The notes under the pieces were generated by a model. It was given only the letters and a program-made list of their open reading frames with translations, was not told the DNA's origin and ran no database searches. From Escherichia coli (GTDB taxonomy: Bacteria; Pseudomonadota; Gammaproteobacteria; Enterobacterales; Enterobacteriaceae): a DNA stretch of 64,000 nt. Positions 7,708 to 55,484 of this stretch are shown in pieces. Position 1 is the first letter of the stretch, and every line of letters starts with the position of its first letter. The DNA is taken from assembly GCF_013122565.1 (NCBI RefSeq), contig NZ_CP053258.1. One strand, 5' to 3'. Position numbers and translations under genes: made by a program.

Positions 7708-7797
7708 GCGATCAGGAAGACCCTCGCGGAGAACCTGAAAGCACGACATTGCTCACATTGCTTCCAGTATTACTTAGCCAGCCGGGTGCTGGCTTTT
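7708..7797 (+). ncRNA. ryhB: small regulatory RNA RyhB (iron-sparing, Fur-repressed, Hfq-dependent)
   Basis: Sequence gcgatcaggaagaccctcgcggagaacctgaaagcacgacattgctcacattgcttccagtattacttagccagccgggtgctggc followed by a T-run is recognised as RyhB; it lies in the yhhY-yhhX intergenic region with an intrinsic terminator hairpin at its 3' end. Confidence 0.9.
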
Positions 7798-7918
7798 TTT
7801 TTGATCTTTCGTTCTCAATTTATCCACGGGAGTGCTTGTGTTCGTTATGCGCACTCCAGTAGGAACCACGTCCGCTTTGCGCTAAGGTGTAAATAACCAC
7901 CTTAAAAAGGACGAAATC

Positions 7919-11662: not shown

Positions 11663-13003
11663 GTGACTACATTAACGCTTGTTTTAACAGCAGTAGGGTC
11701 TGTTTTACTGCTGCTGTTTTTAGTCATGAAGGCGCGTATGCACGCTTTCCTGGCTTTGATGGTGGTGTCCATGGGGGCTGGCCTTTTTTCCGGTATGCCG
11801 CTCGATAAAATCGCAGCGACGATGGAAAAAGGGATGGGAGGCACCCTCGGCTTCCTGGCGGTGGTTGTCGCCCTGGGAGCTATGTTTGGCAAGATCTTAC
11901 ATGAAACCGGCGCAGTCGATCAGATTGCCGTCAAAATGCTCAAATCCTTCGGTCACAGCCGCGCGCATTATGCCATCGGCCTTGCGGGGCTGGTCTGTGC
12001 GCTACCGCTGTTCTTTGAAGTGGCGATTGTTCTGCTGATTAGCGTTGCTTTCTCAATGGCGCGCCACACCGGTACGAACCTGGTGAAGCTGGTAATCCCA
12101 TTATTTGCAGGCGTGGCGGCAGCGGCTGCGTTCCTGGTGCCTGGACCAGCGCCAATGCTGCTGGCATCGCAGATGAACGCCGATTTTGGCTGGATGATCC
12201 TGATTGGCCTGTGTGCGGCAATTCCGGGAATGATTATTGCTGGGCCGCTGTGGGGTAACTTTATCAGCCGTTACGTTGAGCTGCATATTCCTGACGACAT
12301 CAGCGAACCGCATCTCGGCGAAGGCAAAATGCCATCTTTCGGATTCAGCCTGTCGCTGATCCTGTTGCCGCTGGTGCTGGTGGGGCTGAAAACCATTGCC
12401 GCGCGTTTTGTGCCAGAAGGCTCTACCGCTTACGAATGGTTCGAGTTTATTGGTCATCCGTTTACCGCGATTCTGGTTGCTTGTCTGGTGGCGATTTACG
12501 GTCTGGCAATGCGTCAGGGCATGCCAAAAGACAAAGTGATGGAGATTTGCGGTCACGCGCTGCAACCGGCGGGGATCATTCTGCTGGTGATTGGTGCAGG
12601 CGGCGTGTTCAAACAGGTGCTGGTTGACTCTGGCGTAGGTCCGGCACTCGGCGAAGCGTTAACCGGCATGGGCCTGCCGATTGCCATCACCTGCTTCGTG
12701 CTGGCAGCGGCGGTGCGCATCATTCAGGGGTCTGCCACCGTTGCCTGCTTAACGGCGGTAGGACTGGTAATGCCGGTCATTGAACAACTGAACTACTCCG
12801 GTGCGCAAATGGCGGCGCTGTCGATTTGTATCGCCGGTGGTTCGATTGTTGTCAGCCACGTTAACGACGCTGGTTTCTGGTTGTTCGGTAAATTTACCGG
12901 CGCGACCGAAGCCGAAACGCTGAAAACCTGGACCATGATGGAAACCATCCTCGGCACTGTCGGTGCCATCGTTGGGATGATTGCGTTCCAGCTGTTGAGT
13001 TAA
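11663..13003 (+). CDS. gntU: low-affinity gluconate:H+ symporter (GntP family)
   Basis: 446-aa polytopic GntP-family transporter; apparent GTG start at 11663, 4 nt after the gntK stop. Confidence 0.9.
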   Translation: MTTLTLVLTAVGSVLLLLFLVMKARMHAFLALMVVSMGAGLFSGMPLDKIAATMEKGMGGTLGFLAVVVALGAMFGKILHETGAVDQIAVKMLKSFGHSRAHYAIGLAGLVCALPLFFEVAIVLLISVAFSMARHTGTNLVKLVIPLFAGVAAAAAFLVPGPAPMLLASQMNADFGWMILIGLCAAIPGMIIAGPLWGNFISRYVELHIPDDISEPHLGEGKMPSFGFSLSLILLPLVLVGLKTIAARFVPEGSTAYEWFEFIGHPFTAILVACLVAIYGLAMRQGMPKDKVMEICGHALQPAGIILLVIGAGGVFKQVLVDSGVGPALGEALTGMGLPIAITCFVLAAAVRIIQGSATVACLTAVGLVMPVIEQLNYSGAQMAALSICIAGGSIVVSHVNDAGFWLFGKFTGATEAETLKTWTMMETILGTVGAIVGMIAFQLLS

Positions 13004-13015
13004 TTACTGCGACAA

Positions 13016-13050
13016 ATTACTGCGAGCTTGCTCGCAGTAATTCATTTCTC
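13016..13050 (+). terminator. perfect palindromic hairpin after gntU
   Basis: aattactgcgagc-tt-gctcgcagtaatt followed by a T-rich tract; half-site also directly repeated at 13002-13012. Confidence 0.6.
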
Positions 13051-13142
13051 TTTTCTCCTCTCTTCATCTTTTTGATCTCTCTCGCAAATTTACCTGCTAA
13101 TAATCCGTTCTAATCACTGCCTAAAGATCGCAGGAGATAAAG

Positions 13143-15239
13143 ATGGAAAAGCACGGAGCTGAATTGCTTTTACAGCGGATGTTAGGCAATACCACCGCTA
13201 CTTTCAGGGAAGGTCAATGGGAAGCCATGGACGCGGTGGTGAACCGACGGCGAAAACTGCTGGTTGTCCAACGCACTGGCTGGGGGAAAAGCGCCGTGTA
13301 CTTCATCTCCAGTAAAATCTTCCGCGATCGCGGCGCTGGCCCGACAATTATCATCTCTCCTTTGCTTGCCCTGATGCGTAACCAGGTTGCCGCCGCTGAA
13401 CGGTTAGGTATTACGGCTGAAACGTTGAATTCTACAAACAGGGAAGAATGGCAGCGCATTAGCGATAAGTTGCTGCAAGGTGCGGTCGATTGCTTGCTGG
13501 TTTCCCCGGAACGTTTGGCAAACCAGGACTTTATCGAAACGGTTTTATATCCTATAGCCGATCGTATTGGTTTGCTTGTGGTCGACGAGGCGCACTGCAT
13601 CTCTGATTGGGGCCACGATTTTCGCCCGGATTACCGACGTATATTAGATATTTTGCGCCAACTGCCTGCGAATACCCCTGTTCTGGGTACAACCGCGACA
13701 GCGAATAACCGTGTCGTTGAGGATATCCGTCAGCAATTGGGTGACATTGTGATTCAGCGTGGAACGCTGGCTCGCGAAAGTTTGGCGCTTGATGCCTTAG
13801 TCTTAGGTGAACAGTCATCCCGTCTGGCATGGTTAGCAACGGTTATCCCTCAGTTTTCCAAATCGGGAATTGTTTATACCCTGACTACTCGCGATGCCGA
13901 ACTTGTCGCCGAGTGGTTAAGGACAAATGGTATCAGTGCATTTGCTTACTACAGCGGCGTGACTTGTGAAGGCGCGGAAGATTCTAATACTGCCAGGGAA
14001 TATCTGGAGCAGGCGCTGCTGGCAAATAAAATCAAAGTGCTGGTCGCGACGACGGCATTAGGTATGGGGTTTGATAAACCTGATTTAGGTTTCGTCATTC
14101 ATTATCAAATGCCGGGGTCTATTGTCGGTTACTACCAACAGGTAGGGCGTGCCGGGCGTGCTATAGATTCCGCTGTTGGCATATTGCTTTGTGGTGGTGA
14201 AGACCGCGCTATTCATAAATTCTTCCGTGAAAGCGCCTTTCCTGCGGAGGCGCAAATTCATGAAATACTCAACGTACTTAGCGAGAATGACGGTCTTACC
14301 CTACGAGGCATTGAACAACGGACGAATCTCCGTTATGGGCAAATAGAAAAAGCACTGAAATTATTGGTAGCTGAAAATCCATCGCCTGTGGTGTATACCG
14401 AGAAATTATGGCGCAGAACTATCGTCAGTTTCTCTCCTGACCATGAACGAATTAACCATTTGATGAATCAGAGAAAAAGTGAGCTGGCAGACGTTGAAAG
14501 CTATGTCACGACCAAGGAGTGCAAAATGCAATTTCTGCGCCGCGCACTCGATGAGCCAAGTGCCGAACGTTGTGGTAAATGTAGCAGTTGTCTTCAGCAT
14601 CCGTTGTTGTCGCCCGATATTGATAGCGGCTTACTCCATGCGGCAAATTTATTTATTAAACACGCTGACCTGCCATTAAATCTCAATAAACAGGTAGCAT
14701 CTGGGGCTTTTACGCAATACGGATTTAAAGGGAACTTGCCTGCGGGTTTACAAGGATCTACGGGGCGAGTCCTTTCTCGTTGGGGAGATTCCGGGTGGGG
14801 AAAGCAGGTAGCACAGGAGAAAAAAACGGGGCGATTCAGTGATGAGCTGGTGGAGGCATGTGCGGAAATGGTTCGCCAACGCTGGAATCCGCATCCTGAA
14901 CCAACCTGGGTATGCTGCGTTCCTTCATTAAGGCACCTCGACCTGGTTCCTAATTTTGCCCGGCGACTGGCGGCGAAACTTGGCTTACCTTTTATTGATG
15001 CCATTGAAAAAGTCGTGGACAATCCACCGCAGAAAATGCAGCAAAACCGTTTTCACCAGTGTCAAAATCTCGACGGGGCGTTTGTGATTACCCCTCCTTT
15101 GATGCCAGGTCCGGCGTTGCTGGTTGACGATATCGTGGATTCTGCATGGACGCTGACAGTTCTGACAGCACTGTTACGCCAGGCAGGTTGCCCGACGGTT
15201 TATCCTCTTGCCCTTGCTTCTACCTCGGTAAAAAATTGA
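13143..15239 (+). CDS. RecQ-family superfamily-2 DNA helicase fused to a C-terminal ComF/GntX-like phosphoribosyltransferase-like domain
   Basis: 698 aa. Walker A QRTGWGKS (aa 43-50); DEAH box VVDEAHCISDWGHDFRPDY (nt 13584-13595); motif III TATA; motif VI QQVGRAGR; Cys cluster ERCGKCSSC; C-terminal LLVDDIVDSAWTLTVLTALL resembles the PRPP-binding loop of PRTases (compare GntX VIVDDVVTTGSTVAEIAQLL in this window). Confidence 0.75.
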   Translation: MEKHGAELLLQRMLGNTTATFREGQWEAMDAVVNRRRKLLVVQRTGWGKSAVYFISSKIFRDRGAGPTIIISPLLALMRNQVAAAERLGITAETLNSTNREEWQRISDKLLQGAVDCLLVSPERLANQDFIETVLYPIADRIGLLVVDEAHCISDWGHDFRPDYRRILDILRQLPANTPVLGTTATANNRVVEDIRQQLGDIVIQRGTLARESLALDALVLGEQSSRLAWLATVIPQFSKSGIVYTLTTRDAELVAEWLRTNGISAFAYYSGVTCEGAEDSNTAREYLEQALLANKIKVLVATTALGMGFDKPDLGFVIHYQMPGSIVGYYQQVGRAGRAIDSAVGILLCGGEDRAIHKFFRESAFPAEAQIHEILNVLSENDGLTLRGIEQRTNLRYGQIEKALKLLVAENPSPVVYTEKLWRRTIVSFSPDHERINHLMNQRKSELADVESYVTTKECKMQFLRRALDEPSAERCGKCSSCLQHPLLSPDIDSGLLHAANLFIKHADLPLNLNKQVASGAFTQYGFKGNLPAGLQGSTGRVLSRWGDSGWGKQVAQEKKTGRFSDELVEACAEMVRQRWNPHPEPTWVCCVPSLRHLDLVPNFARRLAAKLGLPFIDAIEKVVDNPPQKMQQNRFHQCQNLDGAFVITPPLMPGPALLVDDIVDSAWTLTVLTALLRQAGCPTVYPLALASTSVKN

Positions 15240-16441
15240 TGAATCTTTCAGCCAATGCACAAGCAACTCTCCTGCTAACCAGCGATTTTTCTCGCGCGGC
15301 GGCGAGTGAGTATAACCCTCTTAGTAATAGTGAATGGGGGAAGTTTGCATTATGGCTGAAGCACCAACGTATCAGTCCCGCCGATCTTCTGGTGCCGCAA
15401 CCGCAAGAGAAACTTACAGGCTGGAGCGATCCGCGTATTTCTCAGGAGCGTATTCTTGGCTTGCTGGCGCGTGGTCATAGTCTGGCGTTGGCGGTAGATA
15501 AGTGGCAACGCGCCGGTTTATGGATCTTAACCCGCGGAGATGCCGATTATCCCGTTCGCTTGAAAAACCGATTGCGAACGGATGCACCTCCCGTTTTATT
15601 TGGCTGTGGGAATAAAGCATTACTGCAAGCGGAAGGTATGGCGATTGTTGGCTCGCGAGATGCTCCGACTGACGATTTGCGCTATACCCAACAACTGGCC
15701 GCGAAACTGGCCCAACAGGGGATTTGCGTTATCTCTGGTGGTGCGCGAGGTATTGATGAATGTGCAATGGCGTCGGCACTGGAGGCCGGGGGAACTGCCG
15801 TTGGCGTATTAGCTGATAGCTTGTTAAAAACGAGCACGTTAGTGAAATGGCGTGAAGGGCTTATAGCAGGCAACCTGGTGTTGATTTCGCCGTTTTACCC
15901 AGAGGTACGTTTCACTGTCGGCAATGCGATGGCGCGGAATAAATATATTTATTGCCTTGCTGAAAGCGCAATGGTTGTACGTGCGGGAATGTCCGGTGGA
16001 ACGATAACCGGGGCGATGGAAGCATTAAAACATCAGTGGCTGCCTGTGCAGGTTAAACCAAATCAGGATATGCAATCAGCCAATTCACGATTAGTAGAAA
16101 ATGGGGCGTCATGGAGTACTGAACAGGCTGAGAATGTGACGTTCAGACTGCCAGACGTTACTGGGCTGATTTATGACAAAGCACTCCGTAACGCTCAACC
16201 AGAACTGTTTTCGCTGCATGAAGATGACGCAAATTACGCAGTAATGCCCGCGCATACGCCTGTCGATTTTTATCAACTCTTTGTGGCGGAACTGGCGATC
16301 CTTGCAAAGGAATCGATAAGTATTGAAAGGCTGGCGTCTTGTACTGGTTTAACCATCGAACAAATTCGTGTGTGGCTGAACCGCGCAGAAGAAGAGGGAA
16401 GGGTTATTCGATTGGGCGAAGGTCATTATCAGTTCAGGTAA
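15239..16441 (+). CDS. DprA/Smf-like (SLOG Rossmann-fold) DNA-processing protein with a C-terminal winged-helix-like tail
   Basis: 400 aa from MNLSANAQ; ATG overlaps the helicase TGA (TGATG). DprA core motifs MAIVGSRDAP...GICVISGGARGIDECAMASALEAGG (nt ~15737-15757); C-terminal SIERLASCTGLTIEQIRVWLNRAEEEGRVIRL looks like a winged helix. Confidence 0.75.
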   Translation: MNLSANAQATLLLTSDFSRAAASEYNPLSNSEWGKFALWLKHQRISPADLLVPQPQEKLTGWSDPRISQERILGLLARGHSLALAVDKWQRAGLWILTRGDADYPVRLKNRLRTDAPPVLFGCGNKALLQAEGMAIVGSRDAPTDDLRYTQQLAAKLAQQGICVISGGARGIDECAMASALEAGGTAVGVLADSLLKTSTLVKWREGLIAGNLVLISPFYPEVRFTVGNAMARNKYIYCLAESAMVVRAGMSGGTITGAMEALKHQWLPVQVKPNQDMQSANSRLVENGASWSTEQAENVTFRLPDVTGLIYDKALRNAQPELFSLHEDDANYAVMPAHTPVDFYQLFVAELAILAKESISIERLASCTGLTIEQIRVWLNRAEEEGRVIRLGEGHYQFR

Positions 16442-16444
16442 TAA

Positions 16445-16481
16445 AACAGGTGCCGCGTCTGGTTGTGTGCAGCACCTGTTT
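16445..16481. terminator. bidirectional hairpin between the convergent DprA-like gene and yhgN
   Basis: Inverted repeat aacaggtgc...gcacctgtt lying between the two convergent stop codons. Confidence 0.55.
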
Positions 16482-16486
16482 GAACC

Positions 16487-17080
16487 TTACCCCTTCATCC
16501 ACATTCGAATGCCGTCGAGGAACATCTGGGTTGCCATCATCACCAGAATCAATCCCATCAGGCGTTCAAGTGCGTTCACCCCTTTCTCGCCCAGCAGACG
16601 TAAAAATAGCGAAGACTGTAGCAGGATGACAAAGGTGCCGCCCCAGGCCAGCAGCAGAGCAATCACCAGATGTCCCATCTGATTCGGGTACTGATGAGAC
16701 AACAACATCAGCGTGGCGAGAATAGTCGGCCCGGCGACTAACGGAATTGCCAACGGCACGATAAACGGCTCTTCACCTGCCGGAAGCCCGCTGCTATTTC
16801 CTGAAGCGCTGGGAAAAATCATCTTAATGGCGATCAGAAACAGAATGATGCCGCCAGAAATGGAGACGGTTTCTGCTCGCAGGCTGAGAAATGCCAGAAT
16901 TTTCTCACCCGCAAACAGGAACACCAGCATCACCAGGAGAGCAATAAGCAACTCTCGCACCATGATTGCCCGCCGTCTTTTCGGTTCAGTATGTTTCAGT
17001 ACGGACATGAAAATAGGTAGGTTTCCGAGCGGATCCATAATCAGGATCAATAAAACTGCTGCAGAAATGATTTCATTCAT
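16487..17080 (-). CDS. yhgN: MarC-family (UPF0056) inner membrane protein
   Basis: 197-aa polytopic membrane protein; conserved position upstream of asd. Confidence 0.88.
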   Translation of the reverse strand: MNEIISAAVLLILIMDPLGNLPIFMSVLKHTEPKRRRAIMVRELLIALLVMLVFLFAGEKILAFLSLRAETVSISGGIILFLIAIKMIFPSASGNSSGLPAGEEPFIVPLAIPLVAGPTILATLMLLSHQYPNQMGHLVIALLLAWGGTFVILLQSSLFLRLLGEKGVNALERLMGLILVMMATQMFLDGIRMWMKG

Positions 17081-17271
17081 AACTCAAATTCCCTGATAAT
17101 TGCCGCGGACTTTCTGCGTGCTAACAAAGCAGGATAAGTCGCATTACTGATGGCTTCGCTATCATTGATTAATTTCACTTGCGACTTTGGCTGCTTTTTG
17201 TATGGTGAAAGATGTGCCAAGAGGAGACCGGCACATTTATACAGCACACATCTTTGCAGGAAAAAACGCTT

Positions 17272-18375
17272 ATGAAAAATGTTGGTTTTATCGGCTGGCG
17301 CGGTATGGTCGGCTCCGTTCTCATGCAACGCATGGTTGAAGAGCGCGACTTCGACGCCATTCGCCCTGTCTTCTTTTCTACTTCTCAGCTTGGCCAGGCT
17401 GCGCCGTCTTTTGGCGGAACCACTGGCACACTTCAGGATGCCTTTGATCTGGAGGCGCTAAAGGCCCTCGATATCATTGTGACCTGTCAGGGCGGCGATT
17501 ATACCAACGAAATCTATCCGAAGCTTCGTGAAAGCGGATGGCAAGGTTACTGGATTGACGCAGCATCGTCTCTGCGCATGAAAGATGACGCCATCATCAT
17601 TCTTGACCCCGTCAATCAGGACGTCATTACCGACGGATTAAATAATGGCATCAGGACTTTTGTTGGCGGTAACTGTACCGTAAGCCTGATGTTGATGTCG
17701 TTGGGCGGTTTATTCGCCAATGATCTTGTTGATTGGGTGTCCGTTGCAACCTACCAGGCCGCTTCCGGCGGTGGTGCGCGACATATGCGTGAGTTATTAA
17801 CCCAGATGGGCCATCTGTATGGCCATGTGGCAGATGAACTCGCGACCCCGTCCTCTGCTATTCTCGATATCGAACGCAAAGTCACAACCTTAACCCGTAG
17901 CGGTGAGCTGCCGGTAGATAACTTTGGCGTGCCGCTGGCGGGTAGCCTGATTCCGTGGATCGACAAACAGCTCGATAACGGTCAGAGCCGCGAAGAGTGG
18001 AAAGGGCAGGCGGAAACCAACAAGATCCTCAACACATCTTCCGTAATTCCGGTAGATGGTTTATGTGTGCGTGTCGGGGCATTGCGCTGCCACAGCCAGG
18101 CATTCACTATTAAATTGAAAAAAGATGTGTCTATTCCGACCGTCGAAGAACTGCTGGCTGCGCACAATCCGTGGGCGAAAGTCGTTCCGAACGATCGGGA
18201 AATCACTATGCGTGAGCTAACCCCAGCTGCTGTTACCGGCACGCTGACCACGCCGGTAGGCCGCCTGCGTAAGCTGAATATGGGACCAGAGTTCCTGTCA
18301 GCCTTTACCGTGGGTGACCAGCTGCTGTGGGGGGCCGCGGAGCCGCTGCGTCGGATGCTTCGTCAACTGGCGTAA
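17272..18375 (+). CDS. asd: aspartate-semialdehyde dehydrogenase
   Basis: 367 aa from [16 protein letters not shown] (NAD(P)-binding); the longer ORF start at 17212 was rejected. Confidence 0.93.
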
Positions 18376-18390
18376 TCTTTATTCATTAAA

Positions 18391-18412
18391 TTTGGGGCGC
18401 GATGCCGCCCCT
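18391..18412 (+). terminator. hairpin after asd
   Basis: ggggcgcgatgccgcccc GC-rich inverted repeat just after the asd stop. Confidence 0.5.
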
Positions 18413-18647
18413 GTTAGTGCGTAATACAGGAGTAAGCGCAGATGTTTCATGATTTACCGGGAGTTAAATAGAGCATTGGCTATTCTTTAAGGGTGGCTGA
18501 ATACATGAGTATTCACAGCCTTACCTGAAGTGAGGACGACGCAGAGAGGATGCACAGAGTGCTGCGCCGTTCAGGTCAAAAAAATGTCACAACCAGAAGT
18601 CAAAAATCCAATTGGATGGGGTGACACAATAAAACAGGAAGACAAGC

Positions 18648-20834
18648 ATGTCCGATCGTATCGATAGAGACGTGATTAACGCGCTAATTGCAGGCCATTT
18701 TGCGGATCCTTTTTCCGTACTGGGAATGCATAAAACCACCGCGGGACTGGAAGTCCGTGCCCTTTTACCCGACGCTACCGATGTGTGGGTGATTGAACCG
18801 AAAACCGGGCGCAAACTCGCAAAACTGGAGTGTCTCGACTCACGAGGATTTTTTAGCGGCGTCATTCCGCGACGTAAGAATTTTTTCCGCTATCAGTTGG
18901 CTGTAGTCTGGCATGGTCAGCAAAACCTGATTGATGATCCTTACCGTTTTGGTCCGCTAATCCAGGAAATGGATGCCTGGCTATTATCTGAAGGTACTCA
19001 CCTGCGCCCGTATGAAACCTTAGGTGCGCATGCAGATACTATGGATGGCGTCACAGGTACGCGTTTTTCTGTCTGGGCTCCAAACGCCCGTCGGGTCTCG
19101 GTGGTTGGGCAATTCAACTACTGGGACGGTCGCCGTCATCCGATGCGCCTGCGTAAAGAGAGCGGCATCTGGGAACTGTTTATCCCTGGGGCGCATAACG
19201 GTCAGCTCTATAAATACGAGATGATTGATGCCAATGGCAACTTGCGTCTGAAGTCCGACCCTTATGCCTTCGAAGCGCAAATGCGTCCGGAAACCGCGTC
19301 TCTTATTTGCGGGTTGCCGGAAAAGGTTGTGCAGACTGAAGAGCGCAAAAAAGCGAATCAGTTTGATGCGCCAATCTCTATTTATGAAGTTCACCTGGGC
19401 TCCTGGCGGCGTCACACCGACAACAATTTCTGGTTGAGCTACCGCGAGCTGGCCGATCAACTGGTGCCTTATGCTAAATGGATGGGCTTTACCCACCTCG
19501 AACTACTGCCCATTAACGAGCATCCCTTCGATGGCAGTTGGGGTTATCAGCCAACCGGCCTGTATGCACCAACCCGCCGTTTTGGTACTCGCGACGACTT
19601 CCGTTATTTCATTGATGCCGCACACGCAGCGGGTCTGAACGTGATTCTCGACTGGGTGCCAGGCCACTTCCCGACCGATGACTTTGCGCTTGCCGAATTT
19701 GATGGCACGAACTTGTATGAACACAGCGATCCGCGCGAAGGCTATCATCAGGACTGGAATACGCTGATCTACAACTATGGTCGCCGTGAAGTCAGTAACT
19801 TCCTCGTCGGTAACGCGCTTTACTGGATTGAACGTTTTGGTATTGATGCGCTGCGCGTCGATGCGGTGGCGTCAATGATTTATCGCGACTACAGCCGTAA
19901 AGAGGGGGAGTGGATCCCGAACGAATTTGGCGGGCGCGAGAATCTTGAAGCGATTGAATTCTTGCGTAATACCAACCGTATTCTTGGTGAGCAGGTTTCC
20001 GGTGCGGTGACAATGGCTGAGGAGTCTACCGATTTCCCTGGCGTTTCTCGTCCGCAGGATATGGGCGGTCTGGGCTTCTGGTACAAGTGGAACCTCGGCT
20101 GGATGCATGACACCCTGGACTACATGAAGCTCGACCCGGTTTATCGTCAGTATCATCACGATAAACTCACCTTCGGGATTCTCTACAACTACACTGAAAA
20201 CTTCGTCCTGCCGTTGTCGCATGATGAAGTGGTCCACGGTAAAAAATCGATTCTCGACCGGATGCCGGGCGACGCATGGCAGAAATTCGCTAACCTGCGC
20301 GCCTACTATGGCTGGATGTGGGCATTTCCGGGCAAGAAACTGCTGTTCATGGGGAACGAATTTGCCCAGGGCCGCGAGTGGAACCATGACGCCAGCCTCG
20401 ACTGGCATCTGTTGGAAGGCGGCGATAACTGGCACCACGGTGTCCAGCGTCTGGTGCGCGATCTGAACCTCACCTACCGCCACCATAAAGCAATGCATGA
20501 ACTGGATTTTGACCCGTACGGCTTTGAATGGCTGGTGGTGGATGACAAAGAACGCTCGGTGCTGATCTTTGTGCGTCGCGATAAAGAGGGTAACGAAATT
20601 ATCGTTGCCAGTAACTTTACGCCGGTGCCGCGTCATGATTATCGCTTCGGCATTAATCAGCCAGGCAAATGGCGTGAAATCCTCAATACCGATTCCATGC
20701 ACTATCACGGCAGTAATGCAGGCAATGGCGGCACGGTACACAGCGATGAGATTGCCAGCCACGGTCGTCAGCATTCACTAAGCCTGACACTACCACCGCT
20801 GGCCACTATCTGGCTGGTTCGGGAGGCAGAATGA
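18648..20834 (+). CDS. glgB: 1,4-alpha-glucan branching enzyme
   Basis: 728 aa, GH13 family; first gene of the glgBXCAP cluster. Confidence 0.95.
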
Positions 20835-35100: not shown

Positions 35101-35199
35101 ATGCCGGATGCGGCGTGAACGCCTTATTCGGCCTACAAAATCATGCAAATTCAATATATTGCATAAACCACGTAGGCTTGATAAGCGTAGCGCATCAGG
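35101..35199. repeat. BIME: two inverted REP units
   Basis: gccggatgcggcgtgaacgccttattcggcctac and gtaggcttgataagcgtagcgcatcagg in inverted orientation. Confidence 0.7.

Positions 35200-53992: not shown

Positions 53993-55484
<1,492 letters not shown>

Follow-up and report, generated by a model that had tools for sequence, protein, structure and literature searches.

Identity of the module

The two genes between gntU and yhgN in this stretch of Escherichia coli DNA are the published rqlH-rqlI operon, which is catalogued as PsyrTA. The module is accessory and was known before, because the pair has already been both published (RqlHI) and catalogued (PsyrTA). The window, which is the whole stretch that was analyzed, contained 64,000 nucleotides. 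Taken as a whole, the locus is best explained as a chromosomal rqlH-rqlI (= psyrT-psyrA) pair. This is a large noncanonical toxin-antitoxin pair, with a mechanism that we infer below. We put the probability of this reading at about 0.9. The features of the locus were as follows.

11663..13003, + strand, gntU, gluconate transporter, left core-genome flank outside the module (open reading frame, and annotation in three compared E. coli genomes)
13004..13142, + strand, leader of 139 bp with the gntU terminator hairpin and the rqlH ribosome-binding site
13015-13042, gntU terminator hairpin, 13-bp arms without mismatches, then a T-rich tail
13132-13137, rqlH ribosome-binding site AGGAGA, 5 nt before the ATG
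13143..15239, + strand, rqlH/psyrT, RecQ-like SF2 helicase with a C-terminal PRTase (putative toxin) domain, 698 aa, ATG start
13200..14192, + strand, helicase core, about aa 20-350 (Pfam and motifs)
14469..14594, + strand, RecQ-type zinc-binding region, aa 443-484 (Pfam RecQ_Zn_bind, E = 1.1e-3)
14667..15212, + strand, PRTase domain, aa 509-690 (limits taken from the published F11 RqlH, PMC4670107)
15117-15152, + strand, PRPP-loop-like motif LLVDDIVDSAWT, aa 659-670
15239..16441, + strand, rqlI/psyrA, DprA-like putative antitoxin, 400 aa from the ATG at 15239-15241
15503-16117, + strand, DprA/SLOG Rossmann core of RqlI, aa 89-293 (Pfam DNA_processg_A, 4.6e-51)
16444..16481, inverted repeat with 13-nt arms and a 12-nt loop, located where rqlI and yhgN converge, between their stop codons
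16487..17080, - strand, yhgN, NAAT/MarC family transporter, right core-genome flank outside the module

Both proteins matched the PADLOC profiles of the system over their full length. The PsyrT profile (PDLC03928) matched RqlH with E = 0 and 1062.9 bits over residues 3-697 (profile positions 5-687 of 689). The PsyrA profile (PDLC03927) matched the 400-aa RqlI with E = 1.2e-200 and 664.7 bits over residues 1-400 (profile positions 1-397 of 398). The DefenseFinder entry is "PsyrTA." The gene order also fits PsyrTA/RqlHI, with the helicase-PRTase gene followed on the same strand by an overlapping DprA-like gene; rqlH is always upstream of rqlI (PMC4670107). PsyrTA is the same pair as RqlHI and is listed as a defense system (Millman 2022; PsyrTA also in Sberro 2013). 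The preliminary description did not recognize the pairing as a named system and thought it possibly novel. The profile matches and the published RqlHI overturn this, as the pair is named and partly characterized. It carries no weight as a discovery, because it was described in 2013-2015, named, and included in defense catalogues by 2022.

RqlH and RqlI of the extraintestinal pathogenic E. coli (ExPEC) strain F11 were compared through their published description. They come from the same species and share the lengths (698 and 400 aa), the gene order, the overlap, the domains, and residues K49 and D148. On that description, the F11 pair differs by alleles only.

Proteins encoded between gntU and yhgN in other E. 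coli were 96-98% identical to RqlH and RqlI here. Those at the same locus in ATCC 25922, which we take to belong to phylogroup B2, were 97.7% (RqlH) and 97.3% (RqlI) identical. The Millman clone SG127 (STEC 1299) is the same gntU-yhgN insert. It starts at window position 13003, contains 3,485 bp including the native upstream region, and ends at 16487. It was identical to the window at 388 of 399 nt, and the STEC 1299 PsyrA was identical at 384 of 400 aa (96%).

Locus and boundaries

The gap between gntU and yhgN is 3.48 kb here and is filled by two intact overlapping genes. In K-12 MG1655, only 56 bp separate gntU from yhgN and no gene lies in between, so the K-12 adjacency that the preliminary description gave is correct. 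The translational coupling that it reported was also borne out by the sequence and the open reading frames. The rqlH stop codon (TGA, 15237-15239) shares one base with the rqlI start codon (ATG, 15239-15241) in the overlap TGATG (15237-15241).

A scan of 12900-16700 found no consensus sigma-70 promoter on the + strand of the 139-bp leader. An Rfam scan of the whole window gave no match within the module. The inverted repeat at 16444..16481 is probably a bidirectional terminator, judging from its sequence. It was missed by a stricter terminator scan. A search for repeats that a mobile element would have left behind (target-site duplications and terminal inverted repeats) returned nothing but the hairpins of the two terminators and some short matches attributable to chance. 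No integrase or tRNA was seen adjoining the module.

RqlH

Pfam, NCBIfam, and the motifs agree with the earlier assignment of gene 1 to the RecQ-type SF2 helicases, with Walker A, DEAH, motif VI, and a Cys cluster. Pfam placed DEAD at residues 23-194 (6e-24) and Helicase_C at residues 239-340 (8e-13). The helicase motifs are intact. Walker A is GWGKS with K49 (nt 13287-13289), DEAH occupies residues 148-151 (nt 13584-13595), and motif VI is QQVGRAGR. The zinc-binding region contains the Cys run CGKCSSC at residues 477-483 (CGKC, 477-480). The NCBIfam RecQ_fam subfamily score was 247 bits, which is above the cutoff of 219.8. The RecQ core matched PDB 1oyw with E = 6.8e-53, and the PDB sequence search with RqlH returned RecQ-family helicase cores only and no PsyrT entry.

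RqlH was rejected as the housekeeping RecQ. It scored 292.6 bits for TIGR01389 (cutoff, 640.2) and 222.4 bits for PRK11057 (cutoff, 1015). It was also rejected as DpdF, with 143.6 bits for NF041063 (cutoff, 550) and with gntU and yhgN but no dpd genes as neighbors. The PADLOC DpdF matches on RqlH were confined to the shared helicase core or to short tail fragments.

The PRTase tail alone matched PsyrT profile positions 494-687 with 255.8 bits. The Pfam Pribosyltran match (PF00156, residues 605-683) was weak, with E = 8e-3, and so was the match of the tail to GntX (E = 8e-3). Over the PRPP loop, the tail was 26% identical across 76 aa to the housekeeping ComF homologue GntX (pairwise E = 2e-5). 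An isolated C-terminal fragment is labeled "ComF family protein" by PGAP. The alignment to GntX/ComF over the PRPP loop and the Pfam match are consistent with the ComF-like, PRTase-like tail that had been noted on gene 1. These weak but consistent similarities suggest a PRTase fold for the C-terminal domain, including a loop that binds PRPP. The loop keeps DD and contains DSAW in place of the usual TTGS. PRTase catalysis is putative, because the loop lacks the usual T-G. An AlphaFold2 single-sequence model of the tail (aa 500-698) had a mean pLDDT of 39.4 and was unusable. The tail was rejected as a ComF/GntX competence PRTase, with 11.5 bits for TIGR00201 (cutoff, 233.55) and 15.6 bits for PRK11595 (cutoff, 304). 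The genuine GntX is encoded by a separate gene in the window (53993-54739, score of 430.7).

RqlI

A longer open reading frame for rqlI starts at 15146, and RefSeq annotates the resulting 431-aa start in the three compared E. coli genomes. In addition to the Rossmann core, Pfam gave a SLOG cluster4 match (3e-11). The DprA/SLOG core that had been described for gene 2 is therefore sound (4.6e-51). The winged-helix-like C terminus described with it gave no significant match in Pfam (HTH_26, E = 1.4); an HTH domain at the C terminus is described in the RqlI paper (PMC4670107). RqlI was rejected as the housekeeping DprA/Smf, with 102.8 bits for TIGR00732 (cutoff, 191.15) and 80.5 bits for PRK10736 (cutoff, 495). 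The PDB sequence search with RqlI returned DprA and ShosA structures only and no PsyrA entry.

Distribution and evolution

The module was present in 1,650 of the 5,426 complete E. coli genomes (~30%) and was chromosomal in every case. The closest nucleotide identity among these genomes was 98.6%. All four E. coli genomes inspected (4/4) had the arrangement gntU, rqlH, rqlI, yhgN. The locus is thus strain variable, as had been proposed. K-12 and ~70% of the complete genomes lack the module, which is not a feature of all E. coli.

The divergence of the module was similar to that of the flanking core genes. Both RqlH and RqlI had many more amino-acid changes than the neighboring gntU. The ratios of synonymous to nonsynonymous changes were 11:17 and 11:11 for rqlI versus 30:0 and 39:1 for gntU. 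In O157:H7, rqlH has decayed and rqlI is intact, and this pattern was seen repeatedly among the E. coli genomes inspected. The state in O157:H7, a decayed toxin gene beside an intact antitoxin gene, is what toxin-antitoxin logic predicts. The clean presence/absence polymorphism (~30%) and the repeated toxin decay make this locus well suited to studying how large toxin-antitoxin or defense modules persist or disappear. No RqlI relative was found in the phage collection at E ≤ 1e-20. Plasmids contained four relatives, all of them distant.

Published function and proposed mechanism

On its own, RqlH switches on the SOS response, is mutagenic, and makes cells filament and lose viability (Russell & Mulvey 2015, PLoS Pathog, PMC4670107). 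The same study shows that rqlH and rqlI are cotranscribed. The toxicity requires the C-terminal PRTase domain, which is genotoxic, and the helicase-dead variants K49A and D148A are still toxic (PMC4670107). RqlI neutralizes the toxicity, and RqlH must carry its PRTase domain for the two proteins to coimmunoprecipitate (PMC4670107). The phenotypes of a ΔrqlI mutant are rescued by deletion of rqlH (PMC4670107). By analogy with the F11 orthologues, the RqlH encoded here would be toxic and the RqlI would neutralize it.

The PRTase toxin of ShosTA must bind PRPP, and it disturbs purine metabolism and DNA replication (PMC11961720, PMC12961424). By analogy, the probable substrate of the RqlH PRTase is a nucleotide or a PRPP-linked compound, and acting on it would damage DNA. 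This analogy may fail, because RqlI binds RqlH directly, whereas an indirect (type IV) action has been proposed for ShosA. The helicase part of RqlH probably links the toxin activity to a nucleic-acid cue. If RqlI were lost or displaced, for example by phage-induced shut-off or a DNA signal, the freed toxin could abort the infection.

Defense activity and alternative explanations

The anti-phage role that had been guessed for the module is only partly supported. The PsyrTA family is catalogued as defense, and its representative from Bacillus sp. FJAT-29814 protects against phage (Millman 2022, Table S2), whereas the E. coli STEC 1299 construct SG127 is entered as "observed defense: x" (Millman 2022). 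The cloning and phage challenge that the preliminary description suggested had in this way already been carried out at this locus, and the E. coli allele gave no observed defense. The NILS69 study, which used a native-host deletion and expression in K-12, detected no phage protection and only a growth defect. That study was meant to test defense systems against plasmid transfer, and the section heading in the available part credits only the RM system. Our literature search found no test of the effects of PsyrTA itself on plasmids or transformation. One reading, which we consider unlikely, gives the chromosomal RqlHI of E. coli a trigger other than common lytic coliphages, because two phage screens failed and the fixed site lies outside defense islands. 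Candidate triggers are incoming conjugative or transforming single-stranded DNA, specific temperate phages, and low-oxygen replication stress. The RecQ-like helicase would then be the sensor that frees the PRTase toxin from its DprA-like partner. If true, the system would be a DNA-structure-gated nucleotide-metabolism toxin and not a classical shut-off-triggered toxin-antitoxin pair.

The E. coli module may instead serve chiefly as a selfish or addictive toxin-antitoxin pair, or as a factor in DNA stress or physiology, without any real anti-phage role. Its effects on fitness in gut and infection models would then reflect unrestrained toxin upon loss of rqlI. We regard this as the most serious alternative, although a somewhat doubtful one. 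It is consistent with the failure of the E. coli allele to protect in two independent phage screens and with the rescue of ΔrqlI phenotypes by rqlH deletion (PMC4670107). The single fixed chromosomal site outside any defense island or mobile element, the flank-like divergence, and the repeated decay of rqlH with rqlI intact also fit it. The phage protection by the Bacillus homologue argues against it, however, and the phage panels tested were limited. The excess of amino-acid change relative to gntU fits conflict-driven evolution better than housekeeping, and a patchy 30% distribution is typical of defense genes.

The preliminary description read the domains as the competence set (ComFA, ComFC, and DprA) compressed into two genes, for single-stranded DNA processing or for defense against phages or plasmids. 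A competence-like machine of this kind would process incoming single-stranded DNA, taking it up or keeping out plasmids and transforming DNA. The parallel in domains does exist, and Russell & Mulvey discuss it (PMC4670107). The RqlH tail resembles GntX/ComF over the PRPP loop, and the DprA domain is strong in Pfam. The proteins nevertheless missed the ComF, DprA, and RecQ equivalog thresholds, the helicase belongs to the RecQ family and is not ComFA-like, and GntX, which is the true ComF homologue, has a gene of its own. The published toxin-antitoxin behavior is antagonism between RqlH and RqlI, not cooperation (PMC4670107). This makes the competence reading improbable. That the genes are an ordinary housekeeping RecQ and Smf/DprA in a normal core-genome neighborhood has a negligible chance of being correct. 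RefSeq names the products only in general terms ("RecQ family ATP-dependent DNA helicase", "DNA-processing protein DprA"), which would agree with it. It is refuted by the equivalog scores, the patchy presence, and the absence from K-12, and RqlH contains an extra PRTase domain.

Related systems

ShosTA is similar in that it pairs a PRTase-type toxin with a DprA-like antitoxin and has filamentation and DNA-damage phenotypes. RqlI matched the ShosA profile in part (92.4 bits, residues 85-266), and it also matched two crystal structures of ShosA (8zva and 9vzo). None of the ShosT profiles matched the RqlH tail, even at E ≤ 1. Membership in ShosTA was rejected. The ShosA score was far below that for PsyrA, there was no ShosT match, and the RqlH toxin is fused to a RecQ helicase that ShosT lacks.

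The E. coli housekeeping proteins RecQ, Smf/DprA, and GntX/ComF have folds in common with the module (the RecQ core, the DprA Rossmann core, and the PRPP loop, respectively), but the module falls below every equivalog cutoff. RqlH of Mycobacterium smegmatis (Ordonez et al. 2012, PMC3378886) also contains a RecQ-like helicase and a C-terminal PRTase domain. Unlike the RqlH described here, it has no RqlI to go with it, which holds for nearly all Gram-positive bacteria (PMC4670107). It is a 3'-5' helicase, and its PRTase domain is dispensable for unwinding (PMC3378886).

Identity of the gene pair

The feature between gntU and yhgN is real and was accurately described, but it is the known and catalogued RqlHI/PsyrTA pair. 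It consists of two genes.

13143..15239, +, rqlH (gene 1, the toxin PsyrT), ORF, 698 aa
Candidate starts 15146 and 15239, end 16441, +, rqlI (gene 2, the antitoxin PsyrA), ORF, 400 aa from 15239

The PADLOC profile for PsyrT matched RqlH end to end (E=0, 1062.9 bits), and that for PsyrA matched RqlI end to end (E=1.2e-200, 664.7 bits). The pair also agrees with PsyrTA in gene order and helicase motifs, and it is orthologous to the locus studied experimentally. The rqlH-rqlI operon of ExPEC strain F11 encodes proteins of 698 and 400 aa, the same lengths as in the window, and is absent from MG1655 (Russell & Mulvey 2015, PMC4670107). Those authors identified RqlHI as the toxin-antitoxin pair PsyrTA that Sberro et al. 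(2013) described, and the phage-defence systems listed by Millman et al. (2022) include it as "PsyrTA (also called RqlHI)". The profile matches, and then these two papers, settle the identity. The preliminary description had not recognised the pair as a named defence system, and the novelty this implied does not hold. The phylogroup distribution of PsyrTA has already been given in a pan-E. coli survey.

The ORF scan and the sequence agree with the two same-strand genes first described and with their overlap. Bases 15237-15241 are TGATG, in which the rqlH TGA stop and the rqlI ATG share one base. The rqlH ATG is preceded by the ribosome-binding site AGGAGA, with a spacing of 5 nt. RefSeq/PGAP starts rqlI at 15146, giving 431 aa, a 94-nt overlap with rqlH, and an extra stretch at 15146-15238. 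Residues 1-400 of the 400-aa product align to positions 1-397 of 398 in the PsyrA profile; because this product spans the profile end to end, the short, translationally coupled start is supported. The profile and the published 400-aa protein thus favour ATG 15239, and the RefSeq start looks like a systematic over-extension.

Domain content and related families

The domains read from the sequence at first were borne out by Pfam and motif inspection. RqlH contains a RecQ-type helicase part (DEAD, 6e-24; Helicase_C, 8e-13; RecQ_Zn_bind, 1e-3) with intact Walker A (K49), DEAH (148-151), motif VI (QQVGRAGR), and Cys cluster (CGKCSSC). Its C-terminal tail gave a weak Pribosyltran match (8e-3, residues 605-683). 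The tail also aligned with the housekeeping ComF homologue GntX at the PRPP loop (LLVDDIVDSAWT versus VIVDDVVTTGST, E=2e-5). This likeness is confined to the PRPP-loop region (26% identity over 76 aa), and the RqlH loop lacks the usual T-G pair. The Pribosyltran match and the GntX alignment weakly support a phosphoribosyltransferase (PRTase) fold; a single-sequence structure model of the tail was of very low confidence (pLDDT 39.4). RqlI contains the DprA/SLOG core (DNA_processg_A, 4.6e-51; SLOG cluster4, 3e-11), and its C-terminal winged helix had no significant Pfam match (HTH_26, E=1.4). A sequence search of PDB entries with both proteins returned no PsyrT or PsyrA structure.

Related families scored below their cut-offs. 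RqlH is not a housekeeping RecQ (TIGR01389, 292.6 bits against 640.2) or a DpdF (NF041063, 143.6 against 550), its tail is not a ComF (TIGR00201, 11.5 against 233.55), and RqlI is not the housekeeping DprA (TIGR00732, 102.8 against 191.15). Membership in the sister system ShosTA was also rejected; ShosA matched RqlI partially, and there was no ShosT match. GntX (YhgH), the housekeeping ComF-type PRTase, is encoded ~38 kb away at 53993-54739 (-) and scores 430.7 bits on NCBIfam PRK11595 (cut-off 304). Two PADLOC profiles labelled DpdF, PDLC02869 (74 positions, E=1.3e-54) and PDLC02866 (255 positions), match the PRTase tail (14640-15236) and not the helicase. These profiles apparently derive from C-terminal fragments of PsyrT-like proteins, and they could yield false "DpdF" calls.

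Toxicity and phage defence

A PRTase-domain toxin with a directly binding DprA-like antitoxin in one operon has been shown by others for near-identical orthologues. For the F11 proteins, RqlH without its partner triggers the SOS response and leads to filamentation, mutagenesis, and lost viability. This toxicity needs the PRTase domain (aa 509-690) and is kept in the helicase-dead variants K49A and D148A. Full-length RqlH co-immunoprecipitates with RqlI and RqlH 1-509 does not; the two genes are co-transcribed. ΔrqlI causes microaerobic growth and gut colonisation defects that are relieved when rqlH is also deleted (all PMC4670107).

The ShosTA PRTase toxin requires PRPP binding and disturbs purine metabolism and DNA replication, and it is freed once phage shut-off depletes its unstable antitoxin (PMC11961720, PMC12961424). 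By analogy, the RqlH PRTase probably damages DNA through a reaction linked to PRPP or nucleotides, and the helicase part of RqlH probably couples this reaction to a nucleic-acid cue. Two points temper this reading: RqlI binds its own toxin, but an indirect action is proposed for ShosA, and the usual T-G pair is missing from the RqlH PRPP loop.

The suggested anti-phage role agrees with the listing of PsyrTA among defence systems, but the E. coli construct was negative. Table S2 of Millman et al. (2022) marks SG128 from Bacillus sp. FJAT-29814 "v" for observed defence and SG127 from E. coli STEC 1299 (3,485 bp) "observed defense: x". SG127 starts at window position 13003 and by its length would end at 16487, so it is the same gntU-yhgN insert. 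In the part of the construct compared, 388/399 nt are identical to the window, and PsyrA is identical at 384/400 aa. The proposed cloning and phage assay has therefore already been done on this locus, with a negative result on that phage panel. A later native-host study of E. coli NILS69 reports no protection, whether PsyrTA was deleted or expressed in K-12, and a growth defect as the only effect.

Locus and distribution

K-12 MG1655 has gntU and yhgN in convergent orientation with 56 bp between them, in line with the adjacency first stated. In the window they are 3,483 bp apart (13004-16486). The whole short K-12 spacer is replaced, and homology returns inside both coding regions. The module is strain-variable, as first proposed, occurring in 1,650 of 5,426 complete E. 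coli genomes (~30%). All copies are chromosomal, usually single, and 95-99% identical. It lies between gntU and yhgN in all three carriers inspected (LHM10-1, ATCC 25922, and O157:H7 TX 265-1) and likewise in a fourth with a disrupted copy.

Nucleotide identity of the module between these lineages is 96.2-99.0%, much like the 97.2-99.1% of the flanking core genes. Across the 5,426 genomes, the best identity is 99.3% for the core flank (16487-20486) and 98.6% for the module. In a repeat search, neither direct nor inverted repeats flanked the module, and no integrase or tRNA was seen beside it; the only structures at its edges are two terminator-type hairpins (13015-13042 and 16444-16481). GC content is unremarkable (0.45-0.53). 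Relatives of RqlI were limited to four distant matches in 72,556 plasmid records, with none in the phage collection (E≤1e-20). Together these features suggest an old chromosomal presence/absence polymorphism and not a recently mobile island.

A divergent RqlI/PsyrA homologue is carried on the 100-kb E. coli plasmid NZ_OX030731.1 (39532-40830; aligned over 98% of the protein at 48.7% identity). It represents another lineage of the family in E. coli, one borne on a plasmid. An Rfam scan found two sRNAs ordinary for the region, RyhB (7737-7801, +, 83.1 bits) and ES036/CssrF (35137-35179, +, 39.4 bits, barely over the gathering score).

Gene decay and divergence

In O157:H7 TX 265-1 (locus L003, 4140-6264; compare window 13143-15239), rqlH is a multiply damaged pseudogene and rqlI is intact. 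The damage consists of a 28-bp net insertion with frameshifts and a stop in helicase motif VI (GYY*QVGRAGR). The 3,511-bp two-piece pattern of O157:H7 recurred in about 5 of 25 evenly spaced rows of the carrier list, so the toxin may be dead and the antitoxin live in about one carrier in five. In E. coli NRZ94505 (locus L005, 4552-6586), an ISEcp1-blaCTX-M-15 transposition unit lies inside rqlH; upstream of the unit are IS26 and a Tn3 remnant. A resistance island is thus inside the toxin gene. PGAP names the leftover rqlH C-terminal fragment "ComF family protein".

Synonymous to nonsynonymous codon differences against two other lineages were 11:17 and 11:11 for rqlI, 9:11 and 54:16 for rqlH, and 30:0 and 39:1 for gntU (11663-13003). 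Amino-acid change is far faster in RqlH and RqlI than in the neighbouring gntU product. Many RqlI substitutions bunch in the segment that links the DprA core to the C-terminal region (aa 294-314).
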